64,000 nucleotides of DNA from an uncultured Bacteroides sp. (GTDB taxonomy: Bacteria; Bacteroidota; Bacteroidia; Cytophagales; Cyclobacteriaceae). This document shows, in pieces, positions 4,423 through 31,448 of the stretch. Each line of letters begins with the position of its first letter. Position 1 is the first letter of the stretch. The notes beneath the pieces were generated by a model. It was not told the DNA's origin, made no database searches, and was given only the letters and a program-made list of their open reading frames with translations. The stretch covers positions 12,930 through 76,929 of the forward strand of contig CABHOV010000037.1 in NCBI GenBank assembly GCA_902168185.1, in the 5' to 3' direction. The translations under genes were made by a program, and so were the position numbers.

Positions 4423-4836
4423 TTACGATTTGGGACTCTGAAAATGAGCCAGCCACTGCAACGCATCATCCTGGTTATTGAAAAGTTTTGTGACAATTGG
4501 AAATTTGTTTACAGCAGACAGGATGATGTTAATATAGTATAGCTTGAATGCATTGCCGTTGGTAACTATAGCGGCATGCTTCAGCCCTGCCTGGGCGGCA
4601 CGTGGCATCATGTCTTTTTCAAACCACTTGCGGCTATCGGGACTGATAATACCTTGCTTGGAGATATTGGACAGCATATTATCAACGGGATGCTTCTTGC
4701 TATATTCGATCATAGCCAAGAATGGTTGTTGGTACTCTTCTTTGGATGGACTTCCGTCCCATACCAATACCAGTAGTCGCTTCTCAGGATAGTAGGTTAC
4801 CGAAGCGAAGGGCGCCTCAAAAACTTTAGGATTCAT
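4423..4836 (-). CDS. Small SpoIIAA/STAS-like protein, a divergent outlier of the paralog family clustered at 12-17 kb
   Basis: The ORF-track start at 4845 is a TTG; the first ATG is at 4834-4836 (MNPKVFEAPF...). It shares the family pattern: ..VW..SPSKEEY.., ..SPDSRKW.., AGLKHAAIV, and a C-terminal DDALQWL. Confidence 0.6.
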   Translation of the reverse strand: MNPKVFEAPFASVTYYPEKRLLVLVWDGSPSKEEYQQPFLAMIEYSKKHPVDNMLSNISKQGIISPDSRKWFEKDMMPRAAQAGLKHAAIVTNGNAFKLYYINIILSAVNKFPIVTKLFNNQDDALQWLAHFQSPKS

Positions 4837-4906
4837 CGATACCAAGCTACAAAATAAATTGAATCGATGTCAGTACTTAGTGTGTTAAGATTTAGGTACA
4901 TTTTAC

Positions 4907-5902: not shown

Positions 5903-5991
5903 AATAACAATGATAGTAAAACTCACGCTCAAGCTAAAGCCTTGGCCAAAGACACTTTATAAAATCAAAAATGTTGTGCAAGCCTATATAG

Positions 5992-8627: not shown

Positions 8628-9881
8628 ATGAATAGCACGATCATGGATTCCGGCATGGAGCTCCTGGCAAAAACCGGGCAAGCGTTATTGTTGGCACGTG
8701 ATCTAAGCAGTGCAACGTGCATTGTAAGTTCTGTCGCACGAAAAATTGCCGAGGCCGATGGTGCTACATTTATTTTACGTGAAGGAAACTATAGTTTCTA
8801 TGCGGATGAAGATGCCATGAGTCCTTTGTGGAAAGGAAGTCGCTTCCCTATAGATTCTTGTCTGGGCGGCTGGTCTATGACACATGGAAAGATGGCTATC
8901 ATTGAAGATGTTTATGCAGACGATCGGGTGTCACCAGATATATACCATCCTACATTTGTAAAAAGCCTTGCGATCGTACCCATTGGTACAGACCATGCGG
9001 CAGGCGCGCTAGGTGTATATTGGGCGGAACACCGTGTGATTTCACATGAAGAGATAGCGCTACTGCAATCACTGGCAGATCTGGCAGCAGGCGCGCTCGA
9101 AAGCATCAAAATATATACTGACCTGGAACAACGCGCTAAAGATGCTGCCGGGCAACATGAACTGGTAAGTAAAGAGCTTGCACTGATTACGAAAGAGTTT
9201 GAGTCCTTTTCCTATTCTATATCGCACGATCTTCGTGCTCCGCTTCGTGCGATCATTGGCTTTTCGAAGATGTTAGAGGAAGACTATAGCAAGACGCTTG
9301 ACATGGAGGGGCAACGTGTACTCGGTGTCATTCAGAGGAACGCAGGAAAAATGGACACGCTGATCAATGACCTGCTAAAATTTTCACGTCTTGCGCGAAA
9401 GGAATTACAAAGAACTACCATTGATACCTACAAACTCCTGCAGAGCACGATCAATGAAATCAACCAATCCACTGTACATAAAAGCACGATCCAGATAGGT
9501 ACGTTGTTACCATCCTATGCAGACTATTCTTTGCTTAGCCAGGTGTGGGCAAACTTGATATCGAATGCAATTAAATTTTCCTCCAGGAAAGAAAGACCTT
9601 TTATTGAAATAGGCTCGTATAAAAAGGACAATGAAATTATTTATTTCATCAAAGACAACGGTGCAGGCTTTAACATGGCGTACGCTGACAAGTTGTTCGG
9701 TGTCTTTCAACGATTGCATAAGCCAACGGAATTTGAAGGAACCGGAGTAGGACTCGCCATTGTGCACCGGATCGTTACCAAGCATGGTGGCACGGTGTGG
9801 GCTGATGCGATGCTATCTGAAGGTGCAACGTTTTACTTTTCATTACCGGATCATGAAAATCAGGCTATCAAGAATATATAA
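8628..9881 (+). CDS. GAF-domain sensor histidine kinase (GAF-HisKA-HATPase)
   Basis: N-terminal GAF pattern, H-box [17 protein letters not shown]-box NLISNAIKFS and G-boxes DNGAGF / GTGVGLAIV. 417 aa. Confidence 0.9.
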   Translation: MNSTIMDSGMELLAKTGQALLLARDLSSATCIVSSVARKIAEADGATFILREGNYSFYADEDAMSPLWKGSRFPIDSCLGGWSMTHGKMAIIEDVYADDRVSPDIYHPTFVKSLAIVPIGTDHAAGALGVYWAEHRVISHEEIALLQSLADLAAGALESIKIYTDLEQRAKDAAGQHELVSKELALITKEFESFSYSISHDLRAPLRAIIGFSKMLEEDYSKTLDMEGQRVLGVIQRNAGKMDTLINDLLKFSRLARKELQRTTIDTYKLLQSTINEINQSTVHKSTIQIGTLLPSYADYSLLSQVWANLISNAIKFSSRKERPFIEIGSYKKDNEIIYFIKDNGAGFNMAYADKLFGVFQRLHKPTEFEGTGVGLAIVHRIVTKHGGTVWADAMLSEGATFYFSLPDHENQAIKNI

Positions 9882-9904: not shown

Positions 9905-10918
9905 CTAGACCTTGTCCGTCCGCGACTTTCCAGTATATAGATCATCCTTTTTTACAATGAGTGCTGTGATCAAAGTATAATAATCTTCTTTCGAAGAAAT
10001 TGAAGTATTTGTTTGCAGCAAATCTTTTGTCTCTTCATCCAGAAGTTTAGTGATGGTTTTAATTACATCGTCAAGCTCTGTAGCACACACATCCATCATA
10101 TTTATATGCTCCACCAGTTCATGATCATAATTATCCTGCGATGAAACAGTAATGCGTTTCATCAGGTATATGAGCCCGAGAATACGCGCCAGCGGCCCCC
10201 TCACCTTGTGCGAGTTAAAGAATGCGTATTCAATCAGTTTCCTGTTCAAGATCTGGATATCCTTCATTCGCTCCTCCACCAGCACCTCAAGTCTTTTATT
10301 ATAGGTTGCAATCGCTTCATTCTGAGTCGAAATTTCAATGCTGGTTTGCTCCAATTGTTCATGGGCATCAAAAACCCGAACTCGCTCCTTTTCAAATTCG
10401 CATTTATAGAGGTAATTAATATATACTGTATTGCCGATGCATGCTATTATCTCAAAGATATTCATGAGAACAGTATCGTCTTTACCATCATCTATTATCC
10501 ATTCAGAATGACATAACTGAACATATGCCATCATACTCAGCACAAAAAAATATATCGCTATAAATGCATTTCGATCGCGCCCTGAAAAAATGGTAAGGAG
10601 AACAATGATGAGTCCAAACATATACAGAGAGTTTATACCAAATATCCCTCCTTGAAAAAAGAATCCGCCTATAATGGAAAGTATGAATATACACATCACA
10701 AACACGGTGCTCCCATACGAACCACGGGTATAGATGATCAATCCATAGCATGAACCGTAGACTACTACACTTACGGCTGCCTTTAGGGCGGCATCGTAAC
10801 TAGATTTGTATAAATCAAAAGTTAAATACAGGAGAATAATAAGAATCGTACTCCGTACAAAACGCAGTAAGATGTTAATCTCCAATGTTCGCTGATGCGC
10901 AGGATATAGGTCGATCAT
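9905..10918 (-). CDS. Polytopic membrane protein with a C-terminal DHp (HisKA-like) domain but no ATPase domain
   Basis: About 5-6 hydrophobic helices in the first ~170 aa, then a coiled coil, then the H-box-like FNSHKVRGPLARILGLIYLMK. The remaining ~80 aa contain no N/G1/G2 boxes. The ORF-track start at 10930 is a TTG; the first ATG is at 10916-10918. Confidence 0.7.
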   Translation of the reverse strand: MIDLYPAHQRTLEINILLRFVRSTILIILLYLTFDLYKSSYDAALKAAVSVVVYGSCYGLIIYTRGSYGSTVFVMCIFILSIIGGFFFQGGIFGINSLYMFGLIIVLLTIFSGRDRNAFIAIYFFVLSMMAYVQLCHSEWIIDDGKDDTVLMNIFEIIACIGNTVYINYLYKCEFEKERVRVFDAHEQLEQTSIEISTQNEAIATYNKRLEVLVEERMKDIQILNRKLIEYAFFNSHKVRGPLARILGLIYLMKRITVSSQDNYDHELVEHINMMDVCATELDDVIKTITKLLDEETKDLLQTNTSISSKEDYYTLITALIVKKDDLYTGKSRTDKV

Positions 10919-10930
10919 CTCATTTAGCAA

Positions 10931-11040
10931 TTACCGTTCACTCTGGCGCTGCAAAGTTTGCAACTCAAATACGTGATATACTTCCTCCATATCCCGAATA
11001 ATAATTATTTCTTCCCTTGACTCGGACGGAAGCCATTCTT
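10931..11040 (-). pseudogene. 3'-terminal fragment (~35 codons plus stop) of a STAS-like gene, paralogous to 12050-12520
   Basis: The minus strand translates to ..SESREEIIIIRDMEEVYHVFELQTLQRQSER*. Compare the intact C-terminus ..SESRVETIVLRDMEEVYRVFELQTFQRQSER*. No upstream coding continuation exists; similarity ends near 11040. Confidence 0.8.
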
Positions 11041-11054
11041 TACCAGTTTGTTAC

Positions 11055-11497
11055 ACGGATACTCATGGCATCGATTAACGGTCAACCATGAATCAATACC
11101 ACAGGTTTGCCTCACCAAGATCAGTAACGTGCAACTCTACATTCGGCTTTACGTCTATATATTCGCTTCTGCCCAATAATGCATTAACGCGGTTGCGCAC
11201 CGTAAGGTGTACTAAAATTTATAACAGCAGATACAATCGGCCAGATTGATTTTGAAAAGATGTTTTTTCATTCGTATTTCATTTGGTGTTTTTTAATTAT
11301 CATCAACACAAAAGTATACGAAGGGAATCGCCTTAGGAATAGACAAAAGACTACTGGTGTTGGACGTTTTCCCCTGGAACGGTATAATAGTTCATCTTGA
11401 ACTCTGCAGGCGACTCCTCTGAAGCCTTCATGAAGAGCTTTGTAAAGTAGCGAGATCCTCAGCAGCCGTTTCACTTCGAGCACAATTCTGTTTTTTT
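11055..11497 (-). pseudogene. Degenerate copy of 7187-7685 (5' end of the hydrolase gene, its intergenic promoter region and the 3' end of the AraC gene)
   Basis: Aligned by eye at roughly 85% identity, with small indels and a ~50-bp deletion corresponding to 7600-7650. The start-codon remnant is at 11280-11282. The -7 box TACTTTTG is conserved at 11309-11316. Frames are broken; track ORF 11268-11504 is the AraC C-terminal remnant. Confidence 0.85.
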
Positions 11498-12037
11498 GCT
11501 CCAATCACTCATTGACATCAAAACCCCCAAACCCGCTCGTTTTAAAAATTCGCATTTGTGGAAGTAATTAATATATACCGTATTGCCTATGATATTCATG
11601 AGAACAGTATCGTCTTTACCGTCATCTATTATCCATTCGAACAATACAGATGAAGGAGAACCATCATCCCCAAGTACCAGAAATATACATTTTGGTCGCT
11701 TCAAGAAAAAAATGATGGAGAACAATAATGAGACCGAATATGTTCAGGGAGTTTATACCAAACATCCCACCCTGAAAAAAGAATCCTCCTGTAATTGAAA
11801 GTATAAATATACACATCACAAACCTGGTGCTCCAACGCGAACCGCTGGTATAGATGATCAATCCATAGCATGCACCATATAATGCTATGCTTACCGCTGC
11901 CTTTAGGGCGGCATCGTAATTAGATTTGTATAAATCAAAAGTTAAGTAAAGGAGAATAATAAGAATCGTACTCAGTATAAACGCAGTAAGATGTTAATCT
12001 CCAATGTTCGCTGATGCGCAGAATATCGGCCGATCAT
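11498..12037 (-). pseudogene. Decayed copy of the 5' ~580 bp of the DHp-membrane gene (copy of 10347-10918)
   Basis: Track fragments 11471-11725 (..EWIIDDGKDDTVLMNIIGNTVYINYFHKCEF..) and 11664-11861 (..MIIYTSGSRWSTRFVMCIFILSITGGFFFQGGMFGINSL..) match residues of the 9905-10918 protein but lie in different frames and carry deletions. The ATG remnant is at 12035-12037. Confidence 0.85.
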
Positions 12038-12049
12038 CTCATTTAGCTA

Positions 12050-12520
12050 TTACCGTTCGCTCTGGCGCTGGAAAGTTTGCAACTCGAATACGCGGTATAC
12101 TTCCTCCATATCCCGCAGAACAATTGTTTCCACTCTTGACTCGGACAATCGCAAGAAGTATCCACCGGGCTGATCCTCGGCTTCCGGAAGTACTACATCA
12201 TCCGGGGCCACGATAACACGCTTGAATCGCTGCCGTGAAATAGTTCTAACGAAATATTTCTTAACGTACTCGAGCGTGGCAGCAGTCGCATAGCGTTGTG
12301 ACTCTTTGCTGATACTTTTATGATCCAGTATATTAAATATTATTCCCGCGGGATGATGCTTAACCATCAGGTCCGCGATAGTATCAATACCTGCTTTGAA
12401 TATAAGCTCTGGAGTAAAGCCTTGCCATATTATTTCCATAATCTCGTCATCCACCATATTGACGATCAAATATGTTCGCCCCGTAGTGGTCGTGAGCCTG
12501 AGCAATTCTATTGTATTCAT
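12050..12520 (-). CDS. SpoIIAA/STAS-like protein, divergent long member (P6)
   Basis: Likely start MNTIELLRL (ATG 12518-12520). It shares the beta-alpha pattern and position with the neighbouring paralogs. Its 3' end is duplicated at 10931-11040. Confidence 0.6.
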   Translation of the reverse strand: MNTIELLRLTTTTGRTYLIVNMVDDEIMEIIWQGFTPELIFKAGIDTIADLMVKHHPAGIIFNILDHKSISKESQRYATAATLEYVKKYFVRTISRQRFKRVIVAPDDVVLPEAEDQPGGYFLRLSESRVETIVLRDMEEVYRVFELQTFQRQSER

Positions 12521-12613
12521 AGACGTTGATTCATAAACGGTGTTGCAGTATGATGCTTGCATCTTACTTGTTGTACACCGATAAACAACTTTGTTAATTC
12601 TTGCTATATATAT

Positions 12614-13006
12614 TTACTGTTGTTTGATCCAGACAATGGCTGCATCCATACTTTCGAAGTAAGAAAATCTTAAAATCTCCGTTACCTGGCCCATCGTTTC
12701 TTCTACAGACATCTTGGTAAAAATCTCCGTTGGCAGAACAATAGCGAGATGAGAATACCCCGCGCTAATAGCCTTTATTGTCCATTCTGTAACAGACCAC
12801 GTCTGATCATCCGGATGGATTGTGCCCAGATGCGTTGTATCTGCAATGACTTTACCAGTCTTAAAGTCCTCTATCGCGGCAAGCAACGCATTCAAAGCGG
12901 CCCTGTATTCTTCCGAAGTAGAAGCAGCTTTCCAGCGCATAACCACAGCATTCGCTTCTGCACTATAATAAACTACCACATAGTCTTGATCGAAATATAT
13001 TTCCAT
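12614..13006 (-). CDS. Small SpoIIAA/STAS-like protein, array paralog P1 (130 aa)
   Basis: Aligns without gaps to P2-P5, with 16 invariant residues: F5, S31, E33, R35, A44, T50, G51, G61, D67, W70, G83, A88, F96, F117, A123, W126. Confidence 0.7.
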   Translation of the reverse strand: MEIYFDQDYVVVYYSAEANAVVMRWKAASTSEEYRAALNALLAAIEDFKTGKVIADTTHLGTIHPDDQTWSVTEWTIKAISAGYSHLAIVLPTEIFTKMSVEETMGQVTEILRFSYFESMDAAIVWIKQQ

Positions 13007-13291
13007 AGTATTGGGTATATATAGTATTTGAACAGATAAGGTTTAATCACATCGAGCAATTGAAATTTTACAGCCACTCTTTGGCTGACTCGACACTCGA
13101 TGACGTTTTCATTTTAAAAATCGCTTCAGATTATTAACACCCATTTTTGAAGTGTCGCCTGTAACTATAATGCAAGGCACTGCTGAATCAAAATCTATCG
13201 TGCCGCTTTCCAGTGTGTGTAATCTTGTAACCATTCTATATCTTTTACTCTCAACAATGACGCATTATTAATTATAGTATAGCGTATAGCA

Positions 13292-13684
13292 TTACTGCTT
13301 TACAATCCAATCGCAGGCATCTTTTAAGTTATCAAAATAACAGTCTGTGAAAGATCTACTTGCATCTACTTTAAGTGACTCGATACTCATTTGAGCAAAA
13401 ATATCGGCAGGCATAATAATGGCAGCATGAGTCAGGCCTGCCTTCCCCGCTGCAGGAAACCAACTCGCTATAGCCCACTCGGTATCATCCGGATGGAGGG
13501 CCCCAACATTTTGAATATTGAAAATAACTTTTCCAGTTCTGAATTTATCGATAGCAACAAGAAGGCTATTCAAGCCTTCCCTATATTCCACTGACATCGG
13601 AGACATTATCCATTTCATGATCAGCATACCATTATCCTTATCAAAGTGGATGCTGGCGTACTCTTTTTCAAAATAAAGTTCCAT
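13292..13684 (-). CDS. Small SpoIIAA/STAS-like protein, array paralog P2 (130 aa)
   Basis: Same gap-free family alignment (MELYFEKEY...KWIMSPMSVEYR...RTGKVI...HPDDTEW...AG..HAAIIMP..IF...DWIVKQ). Confidence 0.7.
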   Translation of the reverse strand: MELYFEKEYASIHFDKDNGMLIMKWIMSPMSVEYREGLNSLLVAIDKFRTGKVIFNIQNVGALHPDDTEWAIASWFPAAGKAGLTHAAIIMPADIFAQMSIESLKVDASRSFTDCYFDNLKDACDWIVKQ

Positions 13685-13713
13685 GTCTATAATTAATTTA
13701 TACTATATGTGCA

Positions 13714-14151
13714 TTATTTATCCGCACGTTCGCTTTTCAAAACTTCATCACCATGAATGAAACCTTCGTTTATCCAGTCGTATGCCTCTTGTTCCGTACC
13801 AAAGTAACCTGTTGGTATTCTCTTTTTTACCATGGTTGTTGCGCCTGTTACACTGAACTGAGCAAATGTTCCTTCAGGAATTATGAAAGCAACTTTTTCA
13901 TACCCTGCATTTATAGCCAGTTCATACCAATATTCTGCAATCCATTGCTGGTCTTCCAGAAACAATGCACCAAGCCCACTGGTCTCGAAGATTACCCTGC
14001 CGGTTTTAAAATGCTGCATAGCACCAATGAGAACCAGCATTCCGTCACGGAACTCCTTGGATAACGATGGTTTTATAAACGTAGTAACCAACGCACAATT
14101 CGTTTCATCGTACTGAATCGTGATATAGTCTTCCTTAAAAAAAATTCGCAT
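13714..14151 (-). CDS. Small SpoIIAA/STAS-like protein, array paralog P3 (145 aa, C-terminal extension)
   Basis: Same family alignment (MRIFFKEDY...SLSKEFR...KTGRVI...LEDQQW...AG...AFIIP...DWI) plus an extra acidic tail of 18 aa. Confidence 0.7.
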   Translation of the reverse strand: MRIFFKEDYITIQYDETNCALVTTFIKPSLSKEFRDGMLVLIGAMQHFKTGRVIFETSGLGALFLEDQQWIAEYWYELAINAGYEKVAFIIPEGTFAQFSVTGATTMVKKRIPTGYFGTEQEAYDWINEGFIHGDEVLKSERADK

Positions 14152-14173
14152 ATATATACTTGCTTAAACTTAC

Positions 14174-14566
14174 TTAGCGATTAATCAACCACTCCAATGC
14201 CAAATCAATATTACTAAAGTAGGCAAACGGTACTAAGTCGGCACCCTGGCTGATCGTATCTTCTACCGAGAATTGTGTAAAAATATCCTGTGGTATAATA
14301 AAAGCTGCATATGAGCCACCAGCGCTTTTAAACTCCAGCGCGTATTCTGTAGATGCCCATTTCTGATCGTCTGGATGTATAGTACCCAGATGTGTAGTGT
14401 CCCACACAATTTTACCAGTTCCATATTCTTTAACCGCATCGATAGCTTTATACGACCCTGCACGCAGTTCTTCTGACGTTGGAGGTACAAGCCATTGTGC
14501 TATTATAACTCTCCGTATCACATCGAAGCTGATCAACATATAGTCGACTTGAAAGTATGTTTCCAT
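14174..14566 (-). CDS. Small SpoIIAA/STAS-like protein, array paralog P4 (130 aa)
   Basis: Same family alignment (METYFQVDY...QWLVPPTSEELR...GTGKIV...HPDDQKW...AG...AFIIP..IF...EWLINR). Confidence 0.7.
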   Translation of the reverse strand: METYFQVDYMLISFDVIRRVIIAQWLVPPTSEELRAGSYKAIDAVKEYGTGKIVWDTTHLGTIHPDDQKWASTEYALEFKSAGGSYAAFIIPQDIFTQFSVEDTISQGADLVPFAYFSNIDLALEWLINR

Positions 14567-14649
14567 CGTATCTTTAATTTTAGATATTCTTCACGCGTTG
14601 TTCACTGACATGATACCTACACGGTGCACTGATATATATACTATACCGG

Positions 14650-16329
14650 TTATGCCATTTTAAATTTCCGTAGCTCTTCTTCTGTGGCCTTAAGCTTTTC
14701 AATGATCTTGTTTGTCGCCTGTCTGTTACTTTCAGAAGCAATTCGCGCACGTTCTGCGTCCGCTGCCTGTACACGATCAAGCTCATGTTGTTTTCGAACC
14801 ATTTCTTCTTGTGTCGCCTGAAGCTCTTCAAGATTTTGCCGCATCTCTTCTTCTGTTGAACGCATCTCCTCTGCCTGGCGCTGTGATGACTCTAACAAGC
14901 TTTGCATTTTCTCAGTAGTTCGTACACTCTGCAATGCAGACGCAACAAACTCTCCGGCTTTCTCGAGGAAGGCTAATTGATAATCTTCGAATTCTTCAAG
15001 GCTTGCAAGTTCAATGATCGCTTCGGTTTTATCATTGTATTTCATCGGCACGATCACAACAGAGCGAGGCGTAGCTTCACCCATTCCAGAAGTTATATAG
15101 GTATATCCTTGGGGTACCTTCGTAAGAAATGTAGTTTGCCCTTCCAGGTATGCCTGACCAATCAGGCCGACACCAATTTCGATTCGCCGTTCAACGAATT
15201 TCTTTCTATCAAAAGCGTAACACGCAGTAAGTTCAAGGTAAGGTTCTGTTTCGTCTTCTTTTAATACGAAAAGTCCAGCCTGCTGGGCACCCATATATTT
15301 CGTTAGGAATCGTACAACTTCATTCGACAAGTCCAAAAAGTTATTCTGATGATTGCGAACCGTCTCTGAAAATTTGGTCAATCCTTCATTCGTCCACAAT
15401 CTGCGCTCTTCTTCTTTTTTCATTTGCTTCAACTGATCACGCATATTGACAAGTCTTCCTGCCAGGTTAACTTCGTTGAGACTTCTGTTTGCATCGTTCA
15501 GCGCAGCCCACTCGGTATCATATTTACCGACAGAGATATCCTCAATAAATCCACTTGCCTGCTGGAGATTACTGATGGATCGCTCGATCATTTCTTTAGG
15601 GTTTTCAAAATATACTTCCGACCCAGGATTGAATACATATTTACGATTGTTCTCTTCCAGCGAAGCCAACAGAGAGAGACGTGAACGATCATCACTCTTA
15701 ATTTTATACACTATAAAACCTAACGTTGGAAGGCTTACGACCAAAATAAAAATCTGCAAGTATATATTACCATCGATCGCAGCCTGATAGCTGTCCTCTG
15801 CCTTCCACAGCATCGCATCTTCAAAAATCTGCACCTTTACCCCAACATCATTCCAATGCATGAATACCTTTAATCCACGATCCTCTACCAACATCTTTTG
15901 AAATGTATGCATACTGTCGACATCTACCATATGTTCCATCTGCGTTACAAATTCACCATATTCTACAAATGTTTTTTTAAGATCTCTCAGCCCAGATATA
16001 TCATAGGATTGCGCCAACAGTCTTGTTTCAAGCTCGCTAAACATTGCATCAAGCCCTTTGATCGCTGACGTTGTAGGGCCCAACATCTCTTTATTCTTTG
16101 TAACGCCATACGCCCGTATACCCAGATCCATGTTATGGAGTGTATAGCTTATCAATTGTTCTACTTTAAAGCTGATGGCCTTTGCCTCCTGCTTGATGTT
16201 ATTATTCTTTACGATGGTCTTCTTATATTGAAAAATGAGGGCAACATTCATGATCAGGAGTCCGGCAATCAATACAACAGCCATGAGAATTATATTCCTT
16301 GCAAAAAAATTCTTAATCCGTTTTTTCAT
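14650..16329 (-). CDS. Membrane sensor without enzymatic output: TM, helical extracytoplasmic domain (CHASE3-like), TM, HAMP-like linker, GAF, C-terminal coiled coil
   Basis: Two hydrophobic helices (residues ~12-34 and ~190-210). GAF pattern (..GAQQAGLFVL...GVGLIGQAYLEGQ...SVVIVPM...IIELASLE). The tail carries EEEMRQNLEELQATQEEM at 14800-14853. No kinase, cyclase, PP2C or HTH motif is seen. Confidence 0.75.
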   Translation of the reverse strand: MKKRIKNFFARNIILMAVVLIAGLLIMNVALIFQYKKTIVKNNNIKQEAKAISFKVEQLISYTLHNMDLGIRAYGVTKNKEMLGPTTSAIKGLDAMFSELETRLLAQSYDISGLRDLKKTFVEYGEFVTQMEHMVDVDSMHTFQKMLVEDRGLKVFMHWNDVGVKVQIFEDAMLWKAEDSYQAAIDGNIYLQIFILVVSLPTLGFIVYKIKSDDRSRLSLLASLEENNRKYVFNPGSEVYFENPKEMIERSISNLQQASGFIEDISVGKYDTEWAALNDANRSLNEVNLAGRLVNMRDQLKQMKKEEERRLWTNEGLTKFSETVRNHQNNFLDLSNEVVRFLTKYMGAQQAGLFVLKEDETEPYLELTACYAFDRKKFVERRIEIGVGLIGQAYLEGQTTFLTKVPQGYTYITSGMGEATPRSVVIVPMKYNDKTEAIIELASLEEFEDYQLAFLEKAGEFVASALQSVRTTEKMQSLLESSQRQAEEMRSTEEEMRQNLEELQATQEEMVRKQHELDRVQAADAERARIASESNRQATNKIIEKLKATEEELRKFKMA

Positions 16330-16380
16330 TCTGGTATATTCGGTGAAGAGTTAAGTATATAATTGAATATTCCTGTTGCC

Positions 16381-16794
16381 TTAGATTGATTCTGTGCGCT
16401 TATATTCAGTGTTCATCCAGTCATGTGCTGCCTGGTGATTATCGAAAGTGGCAAAGAGGAGTATACCAACTTCTTTACTGACTACATCATCTGATGGCAG
16501 TTTTAAAAAATCGTCCGTGGATATAATCGTAGCTTGATGAGAGTAACCCGATCGCACCGCCATATTGGTCCAGGTTGTAGCAGACCATTGCCGGTCTTCA
16601 GATGCAATTTCACCTAGCTGTACTGTGTCCATTATAACTTTACCGGTTTTAAATTGCTGCATGGCAAAAAGCAAAGTATTAAGTCCCAGCCTATATTCTT
16701 CCGAAGTGGGATTACTCTTCCATTTCATCACAACGATTGCATTACGCTTGTCATGTTCGATACTCACAAATTCCTTTTCAAAGTAGGGCTGCAT
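16381..16794 (-). CDS. Small SpoIIAA/STAS-like protein, array paralog P5 (137 aa)
   Basis: Same family alignment (MQPYFEKEF...KWKSNPTSEEYR...KTGKVI...SEDRQW...SG...DWMNTE). It sits between the two GAF sensor genes. Confidence 0.7.
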   Translation of the reverse strand: MQPYFEKEFVSIEHDKRNAIVVMKWKSNPTSEEYRLGLNTLLFAMQQFKTGKVIMDTVQLGEIASEDRQWSATTWTNMAVRSGYSHQATIISTDDFLKLPSDDVVSKEVGILLFATFDNHQAAHDWMNTEYKRTESI

Positions 16795-16927
16795 ACTAAT
16801 TATCTATTATATAGGTATATACTTTTCGGTGTCATTGTCACCGCTACATCACTTTTGGATCCGTCTAATACATAAAGTGTATTCAAATTCTATACATACA
16901 GAATCTATAGCGCTTCTGTATCTCGTT

Positions 16928-19324
16928 TTACTTTTTGGCTTCGGGTGACGTTCCCAATTCTTCCATCATTTGGCGAAGCACTTGTTCCTGTGCAAGAAGC
17001 TGTTCTTCTTTTTGCTTGATCTGTTCTGATTGAGCACGCGTTTCACTTTCCTTTTCTTTCAGTTTCTCAATCGTCTTCAACATCATTTGCTTTTGTGCCT
17101 CCATTTGCGAAGCACTGCGTTCCAGTTCCTTGTTACGCCTGGATTCCGATTCCATGGTAGCTTGCAATTCCTCCATCGCCTGGCGTAACTCTTCTTCCTG
17201 TGCGAGTGATTCCTTTTCTTTTTCCTTTAGCTTTTCGATTGTGCGGAACATCATCTGCTTCTGAGCATCGAGTTGTCCGGAAGTTCGTTCAAGTTCTCTG
17301 GCGCGTTTCGCTTCGCTCTCTGATGTCGCTTGCAACTCTTCCATAGTCTGACGCAATTCTTCCTCTTGTGCCTGACTTTCAGCAAGCAAACGGTCAACTT
17401 CGAGTTTTGCTTTTTTGATACTTGTTACGTCCTTCGCAAAAATGGCAACAGCAAATACTTCACCGCGGTCATTGCGCATAGGTACGTGTTGAATTGAGAA
17501 GTGCATCCCACTATATTCAGTTTCCAACTGAACAGTTTCCCCGGCCAATGCACGATCATATATAGGCTTAATCTCTCTACCTGAGGAGGAAGCCAACTTT
17601 AGCAAGTCTGCATTTACCTCCAGTTTACTACCACCAGCCTGAAAAGATTTTTGCGCTACGGTATTATAGTTTAATACTTTATATTCAGCATTAAATGTCA
17701 GAATGGAATCTGTTGAAGCATTCATCATATCACGGAGGTAACGTTCTTTATTCTGCGTTTCTATCAACACGCGCTGCATCTCTTCCTGTGTAGCCGCCAA
17801 CTCTTCCATATTCTGACGCATCTCTTCCTCCTGTGCGTGCAGATTTTCCGTCTGTTGTCTGCTCAATGATAACAACCGATTAGTTTGCTCGGAGTTTCGT
17901 GCAGAAGATATAGCGGACGCTATATTTTCACAGACTTTAACTATAAACTCCATTTTATACTTCTGATATGGCTCAAAAGATGCAAGCTCCAATACTCCGT
18001 AAACAGATTCATTTACTTTCAGCGGAACGATAAAAATCGAACGTGGTGTAGCATATCCCAACCCGGAAGTAATATTCACATAGTTATCAGGAACCTGCTT
18101 CATAAAAATTGGTTCGCGCTCTTCCCAACACTGACCAATGAGTCCCTGACCCCGATATATAATCTTCTCTTCAAACTTCTTTTTATCCCAAGCATAGCAC
18201 GCCTGAAGCTTCAGATATACTTCACTTTCTTCACCATCATCACTGATAATAAAAAGGCTCCCTTGATTAGAATTGGTATATTTTACGATGTTGCGGATGA
18301 TCGCATCCCCCAACATTTGAAGATCGTTCTGATTACGAATAATATCAGCGAATTCAGCAAGACCTGTAACGGCCCAGTTTCGCTGACGCTCTACTTCTGT
18401 GTTATGTTTTAGGTTGTCGCGCATTTCCAGCAACGCCTTTCCCATAGCGTCACGCTCGCTTAGCAATTGAAAATCGGCAGTGTACTCACCTTTACCAATC
18501 TGTTCTGCAAAAATCAGCTTTCCATTTATACCATCCATCAGGTTGGTAAGCGCTTGTGTGATTTGACCGATCTCGTCTTTTCGCTTCTCAAAAGTCGCTT
18601 TCACCATACTTCCCTCCCCGATCTCACGAATCACATCTTTCAATTGTATAATAGGTTTTACTAATCGAGTGACTGATAAAAAATAAGCTATAGCAGATGT
18701 GCCTATAAATAGTACCAGCATAATTACCAGTACAAACGTTATGATGTTATTCGAATGCTGCTTGTCGCTTCGCGCGGTTTCGATTTTAGTATATAACAGC
18801 TTTACACGCGCATCTAATTTGATTTTAAAATCTTTGGTTTGAGGCACCACCACACGATCCCATCTCCGAATCGCGCTGTTGAGCAATTCCCCGCCTGCAT
18901 AAGACGAATCATTCTTCAACGTATTCATCAACTTTGTTTCTTCCATCAGAATGAGCTGAAACTCCTCCAGCATATTCAGTATACTCTTCTTCTCACTCTG
19001 TTGAGGCAAATTTTGCAGTACTTCTGTCAGTTCCTGTTTCAGTTCCTGATAGCGCGTCCTATAGATCACTTCCTGATCCTTTTTCTCCTGTCGCTCCGCT
19101 GGATTGTGTATCCAACGATTTGTTAACCGCACAGAATTATTCTGCAGCGTACTCAGCTCTTTCAATGAAGCAAAGAGTGGTGTATATACCTGATCGATCT
19201 GATTATCCAGCTCTGCATTCTTCCTTAGCGCCAGAAAACAGGAGAGTACAGCAGCTATAGCTACCACTAGTATAACCAGGTATCCAATGGATATCTGATG
19301 CGAAAGATTAAATTTCAATTTCAT
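16928..19324 (-). CDS. Membrane sensor without enzymatic output: TM, helical domain, TM, HAMP, GAF, coiled coil, PAS, repeated coiled-coil tail
   Basis: HAMP (VKPIIQLKDVIREIGEG...ITQALTNLM). The GAF domain is paralogous to that of 14650-16329. A PAS segment is present (SILTFNAEYKVLNYN...). There are four copies of the EE[LM]RQxMEEL[QA]AT motif. No HisKA/HATPase or other output domain is seen. Confidence 0.75.
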   Translation of the reverse strand: MKLKFNLSHQISIGYLVILVVAIAAVLSCFLALRKNAELDNQIDQVYTPLFASLKELSTLQNNSVRLTNRWIHNPAERQEKKDQEVIYRTRYQELKQELTEVLQNLPQQSEKKSILNMLEEFQLILMEETKLMNTLKNDSSYAGGELLNSAIRRWDRVVVPQTKDFKIKLDARVKLLYTKIETARSDKQHSNNIITFVLVIMLVLFIGTSAIAYFLSVTRLVKPIIQLKDVIREIGEGSMVKATFEKRKDEIGQITQALTNLMDGINGKLIFAEQIGKGEYTADFQLLSERDAMGKALLEMRDNLKHNTEVERQRNWAVTGLAEFADIIRNQNDLQMLGDAIIRNIVKYTNSNQGSLFIISDDGEESEVYLKLQACYAWDKKKFEEKIIYRGQGLIGQCWEEREPIFMKQVPDNYVNITSGLGYATPRSIFIVPLKVNESVYGVLELASFEPYQKYKMEFIVKVCENIASAISSARNSEQTNRLLSLSRQQTENLHAQEEEMRQNMEELAATQEEMQRVLIETQNKERYLRDMMNASTDSILTFNAEYKVLNYNTVAQKSFQAGGSKLEVNADLLKLASSSGREIKPIYDRALAGETVQLETEYSGMHFSIQHVPMRNDRGEVFAVAIFAKDVTSIKKAKLEVDRLLAESQAQEEELRQTMEELQATSESEAKRARELERTSGQLDAQKQMMFRTIEKLKEKEKESLAQEEELRQAMEELQATMESESRRNKELERSASQMEAQKQMMLKTIEKLKEKESETRAQSEQIKQKEEQLLAQEQVLRQMMEELGTSPEAKK
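17036..17371 (-). repeat. In-frame tandem duplication, 2 x 168 bp (2 x 56 aa), inside the coiled-coil tail
   Basis: Unit 1 is AQEEELRQTMEELQATSESEAKRARELERTSGQLDAQKQMMFRTIEKLKEKEKESL. Unit 2 is AQEEELRQAMEELQATMESESRRNKELERSASQMEAQKQMMLKTIEKLKEKESETR. DNA units are 17204-17371 and 17036-17203, about 70% identical by eye. Confidence 0.9.
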
Positions 19325-19653: not shown

Positions 19654-22401
19654 TCATTCCGTTTTTCCGGAAAGAAACTTCCTGAGAATTTTCTCTATAG
19701 GATATACCAGCAAGGCAATGACGGCCTGAACAAAAAAGTTAATGACAGGCGATGTATTGGTAGTCCAATAGCTTTCTGCCAGATTCTGTATTAGTTCAAT
19801 GATCAAAATCAATGTTAGAAATGTGAGTATGCGGGTTACGAATTCGTAGCGGCTTTCTTTCCGGTTGAGTCTGAATGTTATACCGAGCAACGCGCCGAAG
19901 AAGATGATCTCAAGCAAATAAAACCATGAAGTTTTCCAATATGGAGGCACGACATTAAAATGGATAAGCTGTTCTTCGGAGACCGATCCCAATGCATCGC
20001 GAATACGGACGTGAAGATCATACGAACCTGCAGGAAGAAGTTGATACGAGAGTGAGGCATTGGGAGTCCATGCTGTCCATTGATCCGAGAGACCATTTAG
20101 TTTATACTGATATTGTGTTCCCAACAACCCGCGATAATCAGGATGTACAAATTCGAACGCTAGCGAACTGTTATCCTGGTCCACCTGTAAATCACGCACC
20201 GGCAAAAGCTCTCCGCCTTTGCTCCTGACTTCTTTCAAGAGTACTCTATGTGATACAGGCGCTTCGCTATATTTCGAAGACGATATACGATACAGTTCGT
20301 TCGTGCCGGTTGTTACCCAGAACTCTCCTGCATGTTGCACATATAGTGATTGAATCTGTTTGAAAAACCCAAGTACATTCAGGCCTTCATGCTGCATAGC
20401 ATCATCGGAAAGACACATCCATTGATCACCATTAAAGACCCAGATGTTTTCATTGCTGAGTATAACACGTTCAATTTTACCAAGCTGCTTAACAATTTCG
20501 CGGTCATGCAAAAGCACTTTACGTCCAGCATCATAGTAGAAACAGTCATGCGAGGCTATAAAATATACTTTACCATTGCGAACGAATGAATAAACCTCAT
20601 CATTGAAAGGATTTTCGATAGGCAACGTCTGTGCTATACTATATTGATTATCAGAACCACACTTCAATTGATATACTGCACTTCTGCCGGTGAGCCATAC
20701 TTCCTTTTCATTTGTACGATTGATATGCACTATATCATCTTCAATTTTTAGCGAAGACGATATTGCCCACTGTCCTTTGGCTCCTTGGCGGGAGAACACT
20801 TTTAACACATGACCATCTGTAAATGAAAATATATTGATTGAAGAAACATCGCATGTAAATACAAGTGTATTATCGCCATCGAGTTGAGAAGCCTTACCTT
20901 CCTTTATTTCAAACAAACCTCCGGTTCCGCCGGAAAGCAAACTGCCTTTAAGTTGTTTGATACTTATACTCTTTCCGGAAAAACCGACAACAGGTTTATA
21001 GGTATAGCGGATAGACTTCAGTTCGCGGTGACGTTCAAATACTTTTTTTGGTTTCCTTGAAAAGATTCTTCTTAGTAATCCTTCTTTTTGTTTTTTTTCT
21101 TCAATCGGCTTCTTCGCTTCAACAGGTTCCTTGACTTCAGCAGCCTGCTGTAATGCTTCTTCTTTTTTCTTTTTTGATCGCAGAAAAGAAAAAGGTTTTC
21201 GTTTACTCTTCGCACTCTTGTCTTCTACCGGTTGGTTTACGGCCGTAGTCGGTTTTTTTTGTTTAACCGCAGGCTTATTTACTTTCGGATATCCTTTGAT
21301 GATGACCTGCTTCAATGTAGTTTGATAGTCCTTTACCTCGTTGAGAAAATACATTCCTGTACTCGTGCCTACATATAGTGTATTTTCAAAAGGCATCACC
21401 GCCAGAAGATTTCCTTCCATACCAGGGAAGTTGGAATAACAGCGAAACGGCAGATCAGGTGCAATGCGTGTGAAACCATATGCATGCGCTACCCACACTC
21501 CCAGGTCACGATCATTCCCCAGTGCATATACTTCATTATCGGGTAAGCCCGTGCGATAATTAACAATTTTATCAATCGCGCCTGTGGTGGCGTTCAGAAA
21601 AACAACGCCTCCGCGAAGCGTCCCTATAGCAATCAGATTATTGCTGATCCAGCGACATGATGTTAATTCGGATTGTTCTATATAGCCATCATCTTTTGTA
21701 TTTACTTTCGTGGCCTTTCCATTGCGCATCCAGTACAATTCATTCTGATCTGTTCCAATCAGAGAAACGGATTTATTCGTGGGATGAGTGGCTGTAAAAA
21801 GAATCCAGGTATCTTTTGGAAAACCGGCATGAACAGGCCTTAACTTTCCTTTGCGATATGTATATATAGTTTTGTCTTGTGTTTGAAGTAACAACGAACC
21901 CGACAAAAAAAACATATTGGTAAACTCATTGCTTTCCGGGGCACGTATTGACCGCACAGTTTTGGTTGACTCCAGGTATAGGTATAGTGTTTGATTGCTT
22001 AGAAAAAAGATACTATCGTTACGTTGTTCCGCCTTCAGAATACCATCGGGACCAACTTTACTGAACAGCGGAATATAGGAGGCGTTGGCCAGGCCGGTTG
22101 TATACTGCAAATATCCAAAGCCCATTTTACCGGCAACATATACCTGGTTCTTCGGTGTGATCAATACGTCATAAACGGAACCTGGACATCGAACGAGATC
22201 CCAGCTTCTTCCGTCATAGCGCAGTACGCCCCCCTTGTTTGCTATATAGATCAGTCCATTACTATCTTGCTCTACATCGAAATTTTCCGGATCATACCGG
22301 TTATCATCGTATGTATGATGTGTTAAAAAATAATCGCCTTCCTGTGCAGAGCACATGAAAGTATAAATCATCAATACGAAAAATGCGCTTGCGTACTTCA
22401 T
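19654..22401 (-). CDS. Beta-propeller / Y_Y_Y ('two-component regulator propeller') sensor-like protein with a C-terminal membrane anchor but no kinase
   Basis: Signal peptide; propeller-type repeats (..GGVLRYDG.., ..GTLRGGVVFLN.., ..GLPDNEVYALG..). Y_Y_Y module (YQYKLNGLSDQWTAWTP...SYDLHVRIRD). About 3 TM helices follow, and the protein ends 60 aa later. A K-rich insert spans residues ~372-453. Confidence 0.75.
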   Translation of the reverse strand: MKYASAFFVLMIYTFMCSAQEGDYFLTHHTYDDNRYDPENFDVEQDSNGLIYIANKGGVLRYDGRSWDLVRCPGSVYDVLITPKNQVYVAGKMGFGYLQYTTGLANASYIPLFSKVGPDGILKAEQRNDSIFFLSNQTLYLYLESTKTVRSIRAPESNEFTNMFFLSGSLLLQTQDKTIYTYRKGKLRPVHAGFPKDTWILFTATHPTNKSVSLIGTDQNELYWMRNGKATKVNTKDDGYIEQSELTSCRWISNNLIAIGTLRGGVVFLNATTGAIDKIVNYRTGLPDNEVYALGNDRDLGVWVAHAYGFTRIAPDLPFRCYSNFPGMEGNLLAVMPFENTLYVGTSTGMYFLNEVKDYQTTLKQVIIKGYPKVNKPAVKQKKPTTAVNQPVEDKSAKSKRKPFSFLRSKKKKEEALQQAAEVKEPVEAKKPIEEKKQKEGLLRRIFSRKPKKVFERHRELKSIRYTYKPVVGFSGKSISIKQLKGSLLSGGTGGLFEIKEGKASQLDGDNTLVFTCDVSSINIFSFTDGHVLKVFSRQGAKGQWAISSSLKIEDDIVHINRTNEKEVWLTGRSAVYQLKCGSDNQYSIAQTLPIENPFNDEVYSFVRNGKVYFIASHDCFYYDAGRKVLLHDREIVKQLGKIERVILSNENIWVFNGDQWMCLSDDAMQHEGLNVLGFFKQIQSLYVQHAGEFWVTTGTNELYRISSSKYSEAPVSHRVLLKEVRSKGGELLPVRDLQVDQDNSSLAFEFVHPDYRGLLGTQYQYKLNGLSDQWTAWTPNASLSYQLLPAGSYDLHVRIRDALGSVSEEQLIHFNVVPPYWKTSWFYLLEIIFFGALLGITFRLNRKESRYEFVTRILTFLTLILIIELIQNLAESYWTTNTSPVINFFVQAVIALLVYPIEKILRKFLSGKTE

Positions 22402-22822: not shown

Positions 22823-24676
22823 ATGAACCCGTTCGCTACCAAACAACCCGAAGATTACCAAGCATTGCTGGCTTCTATTGTTGACTGTACAGATGATGCC
22901 ATTTATAGCAGTTCACTTGACGGAACAATTACAAGTTGGAACAGAGGAGCAGAGAAACTCTTCGGCTTCACAAAACAAGAAACTTTAGGGAAACATAACT
23001 CACTATTTCTTCCTCCGGATCGATTCAATGAGGAATCTCAATTACTCGAGCGATTGCAAAAAGGAGAATATATAGAGCATTTCGAAACTGAAAGACTGCA
23101 AAAAGACCACAAGCTTATCTATATATCATTAACTATATCGCCTCTTAGAAATCAACAAGGCAGTATTATAGGCTACGCTAAAATTGCGCGCGACTATAGT
23201 AAACAACGCAAATCGCGCGAAACGTTTAAAGCATTACTGGAGTCTGCTCCGGATGCTATGGTGATTGTGCGCAACGATGGAAAAATCCATATGGTAAACG
23301 CTCAAACCGAAAGGCTTTTCCTGTATAATCGAGAAGAAATTCTGGATCAGAGTGTTGAGATGCTCATACCACAACGGTATCACGGGCATCATCCGCATCA
23401 TCGCTCAAACTTTTTTGCTGACCCGCGCGTGCGCAGCATGGGTATAGGCCTTGAGTTGTATGGTAAACGTAAAGATGAAACTGAGTTTCCGTTAGAGATC
23501 AGTCTGAGTCCTTTGGAAACAGAAGAAGGAACACTGGCACTCGCAGCTATACGCGATATAACAGAAAGAAAAAAATCTGAAGAAAAATTCAAGGGCTTAC
23601 TGGAATCCGCTCCCGATGCGATGGTGATTGTAGGACAAGACGGAAAAATTCAAATGGTGAATGCGCAGATCCATAACATTTTTCAATTTGAAAGAAATGA
23701 GATTGAAGGTATGCCGATTGAAAAACTTATACCGGAACGCTTTCATCATGCACACCCGAAACATCGTCAGAATTTTTTTCAGGATCCGCGTGTACGTGGT
23801 ATGGGTATAGGCCTCGAGTTGTTCGGTAAACGAAAAGACGGAACTGAATTTCCTATAGAGATAAGTTTAAGTCCTTTGGAAACTGAAGACGGTACGCTGG
23901 CACTTGCGGCCATTCGTGATATCACGGCACGCAAAAGATCAGAGCAACAGATTCAACAACTAAACCGTGAACTCGAAGAACATATAGTTGAGCTCGAATC
24001 ATTTTCATATTCGGTATCACATGATCTGCGCGCACCGTTGCGGGCGGTAGATGGATTTATAGCGATCTTCCTGGATAAATATCACAGCACTGTTGATGCC
24101 GAAGGGAAACGCTTACTCGACAACATCCGGAGAAATGTTATCAAGATGGGCAACCTCATCGATGATCTTCTTATGCTCTCGCGCATTGGCATGAAAGATA
24201 TAGAGCTCACTCCCATCGATATGAATGCCCTTGTGAATTCTGTGCTGGAAGAATTCAAAGAAGCCAAGACTACAGCGCAGGTAGATGTGCAGGTTGGCAA
24301 GCTGCCGGAAACGAACGGAGATCTTGCACTTATGAAACAAGTGTTTCTCAATCTTATTTCTAATGCTGTTAAATACTCCGCTAAAAAAGAACAACCGGTC
24401 ATTGAAATCGGAGCAACAAAACAAGATTCTGAAATACACTATTTCATTAAAGATAATGGTGTGGGCTTCGACATGGAATACTATAATAAACTGTTTGGAG
24501 TTTTTCAACGACTGCACAATCCACATGAATATAGCGGCACTGGTGTAGGCTTGGCTATAGTCAAGCGAATTATAGCACGGCACGGTGGTCGTGTTTGGGC
24601 CGAAGGAGAAGAAAATATAGGTGCCGTTTTTTATTTTTCATTAACTATAAATTCGCAAACGAATGGAACAAGCTGA
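22823..24676 (+). CDS. Cytoplasmic PAS-PAS-PAS histidine kinase
   Basis: Three PAS modules, of which the last two are a tandem duplicate. H-box [16 protein letters not shown] and HATPase boxes ([25 protein letters not shown]). The kinase core is paralogous to 8628-9881. Confidence 0.9.
23225..23950 (+). repeat. In-frame tandem duplication of a PAS module, 2 x 363 bp (2 x 121 aa)
   Basis: Unit 1 is 23225-23587 ([27 protein letters not shown]...[15 protein letters not shown]). Unit 2 is 23588-23950 ([27 protein letters not shown]...[15 protein letters not shown]). About 70% aa identity by eye. Confidence 0.9.
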
Positions 24677-25106: not shown

Positions 25107-25117
25107 GCAGATCTAAA

Positions 25118-27028: not shown

Positions 27029-27049
27029 CGCTTGTGCCGCTATACTATT

Positions 27050-29986: not shown

Positions 29987-30015
29987 AGGTTAGGGTATAT
30001 AGAAATATAGTATAC

Positions 30016-30501: not shown

Positions 30502-30530
30502 GTACAAAAATGCATTGAAAAGCCGCTTTA

Positions 30531-30566: not shown

Positions 30567-30632
30567 AAGTGTAGAATGATCTAAGTTTTTCACTTAAACA
30601 ATCCGTAAAATGCGCACAGGAAAGGATGATTT

Positions 30633-31385: not shown

Positions 31386-31448
31386 ACTAACTGTGAATTG
31401 ATGATAACAAAATTGGTAAATAGAGATCTATATCGAATGCGCCACCCA

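Follow-up and report, generated by a model that had tools for sequence, protein, structure and literature searches.

How a membrane receptor with no output domain of its own passes on its signal is the question raised by a gene cluster in a soil Bacteroidota genome, in which two such receptors are encoded among a row of small STAS-like proteins. The cluster lies at 9.9-22.4 kb, with all of its genes on the minus strand, of a 64,000-nucleotide stretch of contig CABHOV010000037.1 ("the window" hereafter meaning this whole stretch). A first-pass annotation, made from the letters of the window, had described an array of six SpoIIAA/STAS-like paralogs interleaved with two output-less HAMP-GAF-coiled-coil membrane sensors, and every gene that it named was present in the list of open reading frames (ORFs), all on the minus strand. 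Conserved chiefly among Cytophagales (Ohtaekwangia, Chryseolinea and related metagenome-assembled genomes, MAGs), the region is a signalling gene cluster in which sensors and small proteins are joined by a kinase-less DHp membrane protein and a propeller-type sensor devoid of a cytoplasmic tail. Feature coordinates are collected in Table 1.

Five of the six proposed small proteins were confirmed as paralogs. They were recovered at exactly the positions first given, could be aligned without an internal gap, and shared 33-42% identity with the 12614-13006 paralog; the 16 columns originally listed as invariant (F5, S31, E33, R35, A44, T50, G51, G61, D67, W70, G83, A88, F96, F117, A123 and W126) were reproduced in full, with M1 as an additional one. 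When all six frames of the window were scanned with a hidden Markov model (HMM) of the family, each of the five was returned with E = 1e-53 to 1e-59, well outside chance expectation, and the sole further significant match was the gene at 4423-4845 (about 1e-19 to 4e-20). Comparison with Ohtaekwangia koreensis DSM 25262, whose corresponding locus (L005) is ~91% identical in DNA over the cluster, gave ratios of non-synonymous to synonymous substitution rates (dN/dS) of 0.03-0.27 for every cluster gene and of 0.06-0.27 for the five small paralogs, which shows that the cluster genes are under purifying selection and that all five small paralogs are real, maintained genes.

The STAS/SpoIIAA-like fold guessed for these proteins was borne out by Pfam matches, an AlphaFold model and the Foldseek matches of that model. 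With Pfam, the 12614 paralog scored 24.0 bits against PF11964 ("SpoIIAA-like", formerly DUF3478), just below the gathering cut-off of 25, and the remaining four array paralogs gave no match to it at E ≤ 1. PF11964 was the only recurrent Pfam model, matched by 10 of the 27 family members at E ≤ 0.1, and relatives found with the family profile exceeded its cut-off with 26-48 bits (maximum 48.5, in a tandem-fused protein), as did the copy at 4423-4845. Neither PF01740 nor PF13466 was matched at E ≤ 1 by any of the six small proteins, and a direct sequence search with the small proteins returned no solved structure at E ≤ 10. The AlphaFold model of the 12614 paralog, obtained with the 27-sequence alignment, had a mean predicted local distance difference test score (pLDDT) of 90 and a predicted template modelling score (pTM) of 0.85. 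Its elements follow the order βββ-α-β-α-β-α-β-α, giving a central β-sheet and four helices as in solved STAS structures, and it is weakest near α3 (pLDDT 72-76 for residues 100-120). Searched against the PDB with Foldseek, it matched RsbS (6jhk), the DUF3478 structure 2q3l, SpoIIAA, RsbV, TM1081, SLC26 STAS and SiaC at TM-scores of 0.5-0.75; for RsbS, SpoIIAA, RsbV, TM1081 and SLC26 STAS the probability was 1.00 and the TM-score 0.6-0.75. The family is large: searched exhaustively, its profile matched 4015 representative proteins at E ≤ 1e-3, of which 1048 remained at E ≤ 1e-10, and among the best 150 of the 4015, nearly all are stand-alone proteins of ~100-170 amino acids (aa) and fifteen are tandem two-domain fusions of 257-347 aa. 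The UniRef label of the O. koreensis orthologs is "SpoIIAA-like". The small proteins are best placed as a divergent branch within PF11964, a large family that had been catalogued before, and do not make up a new fold family.

In PF11964, a conserved cluster in β4, β5 and α4 is formed by A88, F114, A120 and W123 (PMC2954212); its counterpart in the array family, A88, F117, A123 and W126, is invariant or nearly so and has identical spacing. The phospho-serine found at the start of α2 in SpoIIAA is replaced by Asp or Glu in most PF11964 members (PMC2954212). Helix α2 of the array proteins starts with P65-D66-D67, where the alignment reads LGxIHPDDQxW, and in agreement with the first-pass annotation the alignment contained no D-S-[ST]-G phospho-site, nor was any Ser or Thr conserved at that position. 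The equation of P65-D66-D67 with the serine position of SpoIIAA rests on the secondary-structure register together with PMC2954212.

With the PF11964/DUF3478 proteins YP_749275.1 and YP_001095227.1 of Shewanella (PDB 2ook and 2q3l), the array proteins share the fold (Foldseek TM-score 0.61-0.65 to 2q3l), the size, the stand-alone form, the C-terminal cluster (A, F, A..W) and the acidic residue at the start of α2; the array paralogs, however, are tandem, old and sensor-linked, whereas the Shewanella proteins are encoded by single genes linked at most to UspA (PMC2954212). SpoIIAA, RsbV and RsbS, the anti-sigma-factor antagonists of partner-switching systems, have the STAS fold in common with them (top match RsbS 6jhk, TMq 0.68; SpoIIAA 1h4y, 0.59) and are likewise small stand-alone cytoplasmic proteins encoded beside sensory proteins. 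Unlike these antagonists, the array proteins have no phosphorylatable serine, no cognate GHKL serine kinase or PP2C phosphatase in any scanned ORF of the window, and no match to the PF01740 or PF13466 profile. SpoIIAA has two strands before α1, whereas the model of the array protein has three, that is, one extra N-terminal β-strand. In the SiaABCD system of Pseudomonas aeruginosa, the gene of the STAS-like adaptor SiaC (a DUF1987 protein; TM-score 0.5-0.55) likewise accompanies that of a membrane sensor with a HAMP domain. There, the kinase SiaB and the PP2C phosphatase SiaA switch SiaC, which activates the diguanylate cyclase SiaD, but no SiaB-, SiaA- or SiaD-type enzyme was found at the present cluster.

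The remaining small protein, described in the first-pass annotation as a sixth, longer relative, could not be upheld as such. The 170-aa product shares 13% identity with the first paralog, was not matched by the family HMM at E ≤ 1e-3 (E = 0.31 with filters off), and gave hhalign probabilities of 12.8% (3 sequences) and 2.6% (9 sequences) when its family was compared with that of the small paralogs; its AlphaFold model was unreliable (pLDDT 48). It was therefore treated as a separate family, a narrow one of ten clusters, so that the array keeps five demonstrable paralogs and loses the 12050 gene as a member. Its orthologs sit between the array and the DHp gene in the O. koreensis locus and in an O. 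kribbensis-type locus (L020), and the protein is regarded as a conserved cluster member of unassigned fold, with a very remote STAS kinship being possible.

The two large proteins of the cluster both contain two predicted transmembrane segments around an extramembrane region of ~160 residues. In the 798-aa sensor (transmembrane segments 15-33 and 194-212), Pfam detected GAF_2 (1.9e-14), HAMP (6.3e-7) and PAS_4 (1.3e-6). For the 559-aa sensor, GAF_2 was found at 3.7e-12 and CHASE3 at E = 0.0031, its 17.8 bits lying under the cut-off of 28; CHASE3 is on record for many homologs of this protein and for array-linked sensors of other genera. The two are paralogous, with 43% identity over 254 residues that span a HAMP-like segment, the GAF domain and the helix that follows it. 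The transmembrane-ectodomain-transmembrane-HAMP-GAF-coiled-coil layout of the first-pass annotation thus stood as regards the membrane segments, the GAF domains, the paralogy and the PAS domain of the larger protein; HAMP, on the other hand, passed the Pfam cut-off in the 798-aa sensor only, and in the 559-aa sensor, where Pfam did not detect it, it was seen only by eye and through homology to the region after the Pfam HAMP of its paralog. A CHASE3-HAMP-GAF architecture was accordingly assigned, with CHASE3 sub-threshold in the 559-aa protein.

The claim that the sensors lack an output domain held throughout. Neither showed a catalytic or DNA-binding domain (kinase, cyclase, phosphodiesterase or PP2C) with Pfam and NCBIfam at E ≤ 1, and when HisKA with HATPase_c, MCPsignal and GGDEF/EAL were looked for, only GAF, HAMP, PAS and CHASE3 were present. 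Precomputed Pfam assignments of 120 homologs (those listed of 572 at E ≤ 1e-10; 315-823 aa) were likewise limited to the CHASE3, GAF, HAMP and PAS families, and no output domain was found by Pfam in the array-linked sensors of other genera. The N-terminal sensory architecture is the same as that of CHASE3-HAMP-GAF sensor histidine kinases and cyclases, but the window sensors end in a conserved helix and coiled coil (or PAS and coiled coil) instead of HisKA/HATPase or GGDEF.

This post-GAF helix has the consensus QEEE[ML]RQN[ML]EELxATQEEM, which occurs in 107 of the 120 listed homologs; in a sample of 17 sequences R43, Q44, N45, E47, E48, T52 and Q53 were invariant. Copies of the motif lie at residues 499, 654, 710 and 780 of the 798-aa sensor, the tail of which contains two tandem coiled-coil repeats of ~56 aa (residues about 650-761), each opening with the conserved motif; the repeat unit is kept in sensors of Chryseolinea and related MAGs. 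The possibility of an output module hidden in the tails was rejected, as a profile of the helix searched against all PDB sequences matched designed helical bundles and coiled coils only, so that the helix is no recognisable DHp or methyl-accepting chemotaxis protein (MCP) module. Also rejected was a correspondence of one tail motif per STAS-like protein, which the five motifs and five genes of the window would fit, since locus L023 has one strict motif (about three looser units by eye in the tail) for 10 small genes and L020 has three or four motifs for a single small gene. At residues about 490-515 of both window sensors the motif contains E-E-x-x-A-T, which we take to resemble the classical chemoreceptor methylation consensus. 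At another O. koreensis locus (L028 1-4230), a CheR gene lies beside a NIT-HAMP-GAF hybrid kinase gene, ~2 kb from a further CHASE3-GAF paralog.

The 341-aa protein encoded last in the cluster has at least four transmembrane segments along with a coiled coil, and its DHp-like His box (NSHKVRGPLARILGL), of the form NSHK[VI]RGPLAR[IV]LGL, is invariant in six intact homologs. Its match to HisKA is sub-threshold, with stronger matches in the homologs. No HATPase_c domain was found by Pfam in it or in its homologs of 322-403 aa, which stop ~50 residues past the DHp segment, so that of the His box and ATPase domain by which a histidine kinase is recognised it has the former only. The 915-aa protein encoded first consists of a periplasmic Y_Y_Y/propeller region followed by three C-terminal transmembrane segments (825-902), with nothing cytoplasmic (dN/dS 0.04). 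Ectodomains of this type are usually borne by hybrid two-component sensors; unlike these, the 915-aa protein ends after its transmembrane segments and has no kinase or regulator part. As the DHp protein is without an ATPase domain and the 915-aa protein without a cytoplasmic part, no product of the conserved cluster has a recognisable catalytic domain.

The arrangement was followed in 29 loci (labelled L001 onwards), which were collected by looking up proteins and by scanning genomes and metagenomes for sequence patterns, their ORFs being searched with the family profile and with the large proteins of the window. A narrower alignment than the full set of 27 sequences was used in this search, so that it is the close subfamily whose context was sampled. 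In ~9 loci a run of 1-10 STAS-like genes directly follows a co-oriented CHASE3-GAF sensor gene, in most cases one of the 798-aa type with a PAS domain, across gaps of 11-133 nt; in five loci only 11-41 nt separate the sensor gene from the first of the small genes. Five STAS-like genes are found in the O. koreensis lineage (window and L005) and one in the O. kribbensis-type locus L020, in both cases along with a second sensor, the 170-aa protein, the DHp protein and the Y_Y_Y protein. A Chryseolinea MAG (L001/L009) has eight; metagenomic loci have 10, with DHp and Y_Y_Y genes (L023), and six or more (L022); three are present in a Cyclobacteriaceae MAG and metagenome (L024/L007) and in another Cyclobacteriaceae MAG (L006); and there is one in Chryseolinea L008, with a DHp gene, and one in a Sphingobacteriales MAG (L013). 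The refuting condition named in the first-pass annotation, that orthologs are never adjacent to HAMP-GAF proteins, is contradicted by these loci, although the pairing of GAF sensors with arrays proposed in the first-pass annotation, while it recurs, is not obligatory.

The DHp-only protein accompanies arrays in six loci (L005, L008, L016, L020, L023 and L025) and the Y_Y_Y membrane protein in five (L005, L016, L020, L023 and L025). Their position is not fixed: L023 has the order sensor, array, DHp and Y_Y_Y, and in L025 too DHp and then Y_Y_Y lie downstream of the array, whereas the window has Y_Y_Y, sensor, STAS-like gene, sensor, array and DHp. That the same four components are kept in spite of rearrangement is the main argument for a functional link, suggesting selection on their co-location rather than mere inherited synteny. 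In a neighbour-joining tree of the small paralogs, which is rough and carries no support values, each window paralog fell with genes from other genera, different ones for each, instead of with its array neighbours: the 16381 paralog with the L020 gene that likewise follows a 798-type sensor, the 13292 paralog with the first-after-sensor genes of L001, L022 and L023, and the 13714 paralog with Niabella copies. The window paralogs are therefore old, and each has been conserved individually.

As Asp-Asp replaces the phospho-serine, switching by conformation or ligand, and not by a kinase/phosphatase pair, is suggested for the small proteins. The reading that we favour, though tentatively, is that they act as phosphorylation-independent switch or adaptor subunits, which bind the cytoplasmic part of the sensors, the DHp protein, or both. 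With Asp-Asp at the start of α2, where SpoIIAA carries its phospho-serine, an α2/α3 "switch region" would toggle through conformational change or ligand binding; the GAF domain and post-GAF helix (QEEEMRQNMEELxATQEEM) of the sensors would recruit or release particular paralogs; and downstream partners would be acted on by the paralogs, released or bound, most plausibly by way of the DHp-only membrane protein and then the orphan histidine kinases of the surrounding signalling island. The proposed switch region is variable among the paralogs and is the least confident part of the model, and open and closed states have been described for PF11964 crystal structures (PMC2954212). A more detailed form of this scheme would be an enzyme-free partner switch, in which output-less sensors would signal solely through binding and releasing members of a diversified set of constitutively "pseudo-phosphorylated" (Asp-Asp) STAS-fold proteins. 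Either the conformation of the sensor or a small ligand lodged in the α2/α3 cavity would set the switch, and the unbound proteins would gate the kinase-less membrane DHp protein, which in turn would exchange phosphoryl groups with orphan histidine kinases; in all its particulars we regard this as rather unlikely.

Several points weigh against the adaptor reading. Direct binding between sensor and small protein is what we infer. STAS-like genes of the same subfamily also occur with no sensor beside them: Fulvivirga kasyanovii JCM 16186 has a 14-copy array (L012, 4424-13006) with no CHASE3-GAF sensor nearby, Niabella has three copies among housekeeping genes, O. kribbensis has singletons, and L014 and L015 have two copies and one, the neighbours of such sensor-free arrays being unrelated genes in Pfam scans. 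Conversely, most CHASE3-GAF paralogs stand alone (the more distant homologs of L018, L019 and L021 and two further O. koreensis paralogs, in L028 and L029, have no adjacent STAS-like gene), which makes the post-GAF helix a trait of the whole sensor family rather than of the array-linked subset, and the number of motif copies does not track that of small genes. The more specific proposal of the first-pass annotation, that the sensors bind the adaptors through their coiled-coil tails, was not supported. Many of the linked loci are from related genera, so that they are not fully independent of each other. Nor could operon boundaries be supported by sequence, as scans for sigma-70-type promoters and terminators, which are ill-suited to Bacteroidota, stayed at background level.

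The main rival reading, conceivable if somewhat unlikely, is that the small proteins bind or carry small hydrophobic molecules in the manner of CRAL-TRIO/Sec14-like proteins, as has been proposed for PF11964, the paralogs differing in ligand and the link to the sensors reflecting shared regulation or the handing over of ligand to GAF or PAS domains instead of adaptor-type signalling. The PF11964 crystal structures include an open form, with a non-polar cavity of 1743 Å3 between α2 and α3, as well as a closed one (PMC2954212). Aromatic and hydrophobic residues are kept in the same helices of the array proteins (W70 and F96 invariant, W75 and M99 common), paralog variation in the alignments is concentrated in the C-terminal half of α2 and in α3, and it is near α3 that confidence in the model falls, as given above. 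Such a role would also suit the existence of sensor-free arrays, the TonB-dependent receptor genes adjoining arrays in L001 and L012, and the DAGK-type lipid kinase gene beside the seventh copy. However, PF11964 members are not known to bind a ligand, direct evidence of a cavity is not seen in the AlphaFold model, and signalling partners are the more typical occupants of a tight, recurrent position after output-less sensors and alongside a DHp-only protein. Carriage of a ligand and the adaptor role are not mutually exclusive.

Less probable still is that the adjacency is functionally meaningless, the small proteins serving an unrelated role, for example in stress response or as an immunity-like function of the kind typical for arrays of tandem paralogs, and their synteny with the sensors having been inherited in one lineage. 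This would account for the ~7 loci of the same subfamily that have no sensor, among them the largest array (the 14 copies of Fulvivirga), for linked loci being mostly those of related genera (Ohtaekwangia, Chryseolinea and "Cyclobacteriaceae" MAGs), and for the several CHASE3-GAF paralogs of each genome. It does not fit well with the persistence of the same four components while gene order and copy number vary, with the presence of the pair in the Sphingobacteriales MAG (L013), or with the 11-41 nt gaps between sensor and small gene in five loci. Furthermore, no PADLOC model was matched by any of the ten cluster proteins, so that anti-phage defence was set aside and an immunity-like role is disfavoured. 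A conventional partner switch, with a serine kinase/anti-sigma factor and a PP2C phosphatase encoded elsewhere in the genome, is highly improbable: RsbS, SpoIIAA and RsbV are among the best structural matches and partner-switching genes can be dispersed, but the proteins have Pro-Asp-Asp at the phospho-serine position and no DSSG motif, remain unmatched by PF01740 and PF13466 at E ≤ 1, and group with PF11964, where the serine is generally Asp or Glu (PMC2954212). Moreover, the ORFs of at least 150 aa that were scanned across the 64 kb window, and those called genes of related loci for which Pfam families are on record, included neither a PP2C phosphatase nor a SpoIIAB/RsbW-type kinase.

Returning to the adaptor reading, the gene neighbourhood and the fold are well-supported observations, the mechanism is one that we infer, and the pairing is lineage-restricted and not obligatory. 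The fold family and the sensory domains were already known, but the conserved enzyme-free module that joins them appears to be undescribed: a literature search found no publication linking CHASE3/GAF proteins with PF11964-type proteins, and PMC2954212, from structural genomics, was the sole characterisation of PF11964 proteins that it returned. Two widespread kinds of protein without a known function are concerned, namely PF11964/DUF3478, of which ~4000 representative clusters match the subfamily profile, and the output-less CHASE3-GAF proteins, several copies of which are present in each Cytophagales genome. By joining both with a DHp protein that has no catalytic domain and with a tail-less propeller sensor, the cluster provides a concrete and testable hypothesis for the two. 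If enzyme-free switching were true, it would give PF11964 a first function and the output-less CHASE3-GAF proteins of Cytophagales an output mechanism, it would extend partner switching beyond the phosphorylation paradigm, and it would make clearer how "output-less" receptors pass signals.

Table 1. Features of the cluster and its outlying relative in the window, from the highest position to the lowest, with the evidence for each.
Feature	Position	Strand	Evidence
915-aa propeller/Y_Y_Y membrane protein, first cluster gene	19654..22401	-	Pfam Y_Y_Y 2.7e-8, weak Reg_prop; transmembrane prediction
798-aa sensor: transmembrane segment, helical ectodomain, transmembrane segment, HAMP, HAMP-like segment, GAF, conserved helix motif, PAS, coiled coil	16928..19324	-	Pfam; transmembrane prediction
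STAS-fold (PF11964-like) paralog, 137 aa, next gene after the 798-aa sensor	16381..16794	-	family HMM 4e-53; dN/dS 0.08
559-aa sensor: transmembrane segment, CHASE3-like ectodomain, transmembrane segment, HAMP-like segment, GAF, conserved helix motif, short coiled coil	14650..16329	-	Pfam; homology
STAS-fold paralog, 130 aa	14174..14566	-	family HMM 5e-54; gapless alignment; dN/dS 0.10
STAS-fold paralog, 145 aa, C-terminal tail	13714..14151	-	family HMM 5e-53; dN/dS 0.06
STAS-fold paralog, 130 aa	13292..13684	-	family HMM 5e-58; dN/dS 0.27
STAS-fold paralog, 130 aa, the one modelled	12614..13006	-	PF11964 24.0 bits; AlphaFold; Foldseek
Narrow-family protein, 156-170 aa (170-aa product)	12050..12562	-	orthologs in the same position in L005 and L020; dN/dS 0.03
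Duplication scar	10931..12049	-	blastn comparison of the window with itself and with O. koreensis
341-aa membrane DHp-only protein, last cluster gene; likely start ATG at 10918	9905..10930	-	weak HisKA; conserved His box
Seventh STAS-like gene, 140 aa, outside the cluster, bona fide PF11964 member	4423..4845	-	PF11964 27.6 bits against a cut-off of 25; family HMM 3.7e-20

The intergenic gaps calculated from the ORF coordinates (133, 51, 83, 22, 29, 285 and 51 nt) reproduced those first reported, of 22-133 nt with one of 285. The 285-nt gap (13007-13291) has a counterpart of 280 nt in O. koreensis, with both ends well conserved and the middle divergent, and may contain an internal promoter. No degraded paralog was recognisable in it with the family profile, and no structured RNA or riboswitch was matched by Rfam in the cluster, this gap included. 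The duplication scar at 10931-12049 has no counterpart in O. koreensis, where only 12 nt separate the 170-aa gene from the DHp gene. Within it are a truncated copy of the 5' part of the DHp gene (about 11495-12047), with 80% identity to the intact gene, a translocated piece of 436 bp that matches an O. koreensis site ~3 kb downstream, and 97 bp repeated from the 3' end of the 170-aa gene; an 84-aa ORF within it (11471-11725) matches the DHp protein with E = 1.6e-13.

A GAF histidine kinase gene (8628-9881) converges on the 3' end of the cluster and a PAS histidine kinase gene (22823-24676) diverges from its 5' end, both being kept in the Ohtaekwangia loci L005 and L020. With the latter begins a dense two-component island (22823-36649), in which the PAS kinase is joined by a REC-PAS kinase, a GAF-PAS hybrid kinase, a 250-aa bare HisKA-HATPase protein, a 161-aa GAF-only protein, a LuxR-type response regulator and a periplasmic-binding-protein-PAS kinase. 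The window ends within another Y_Y_Y-type ORF, a more distant one (61315-64000, plus strand).

Around the arrays of other genomes, the 14 copies in L012 are preceded by a TonB-dependent receptor gene and followed by an Mrr-cat/ATP-cone gene, and a TonB-dependent receptor gene interrupts the eight copies in L001; a STRING link of PF11964 to TonB-dependent receptors is mentioned in PMC2954212. In the window, the product of the seventh STAS-like gene also touches DUF7793, and the genes on either side of it encode a DAGK-type lipid kinase (3483-4373) and a zinc alcohol dehydrogenase (4907-5932).

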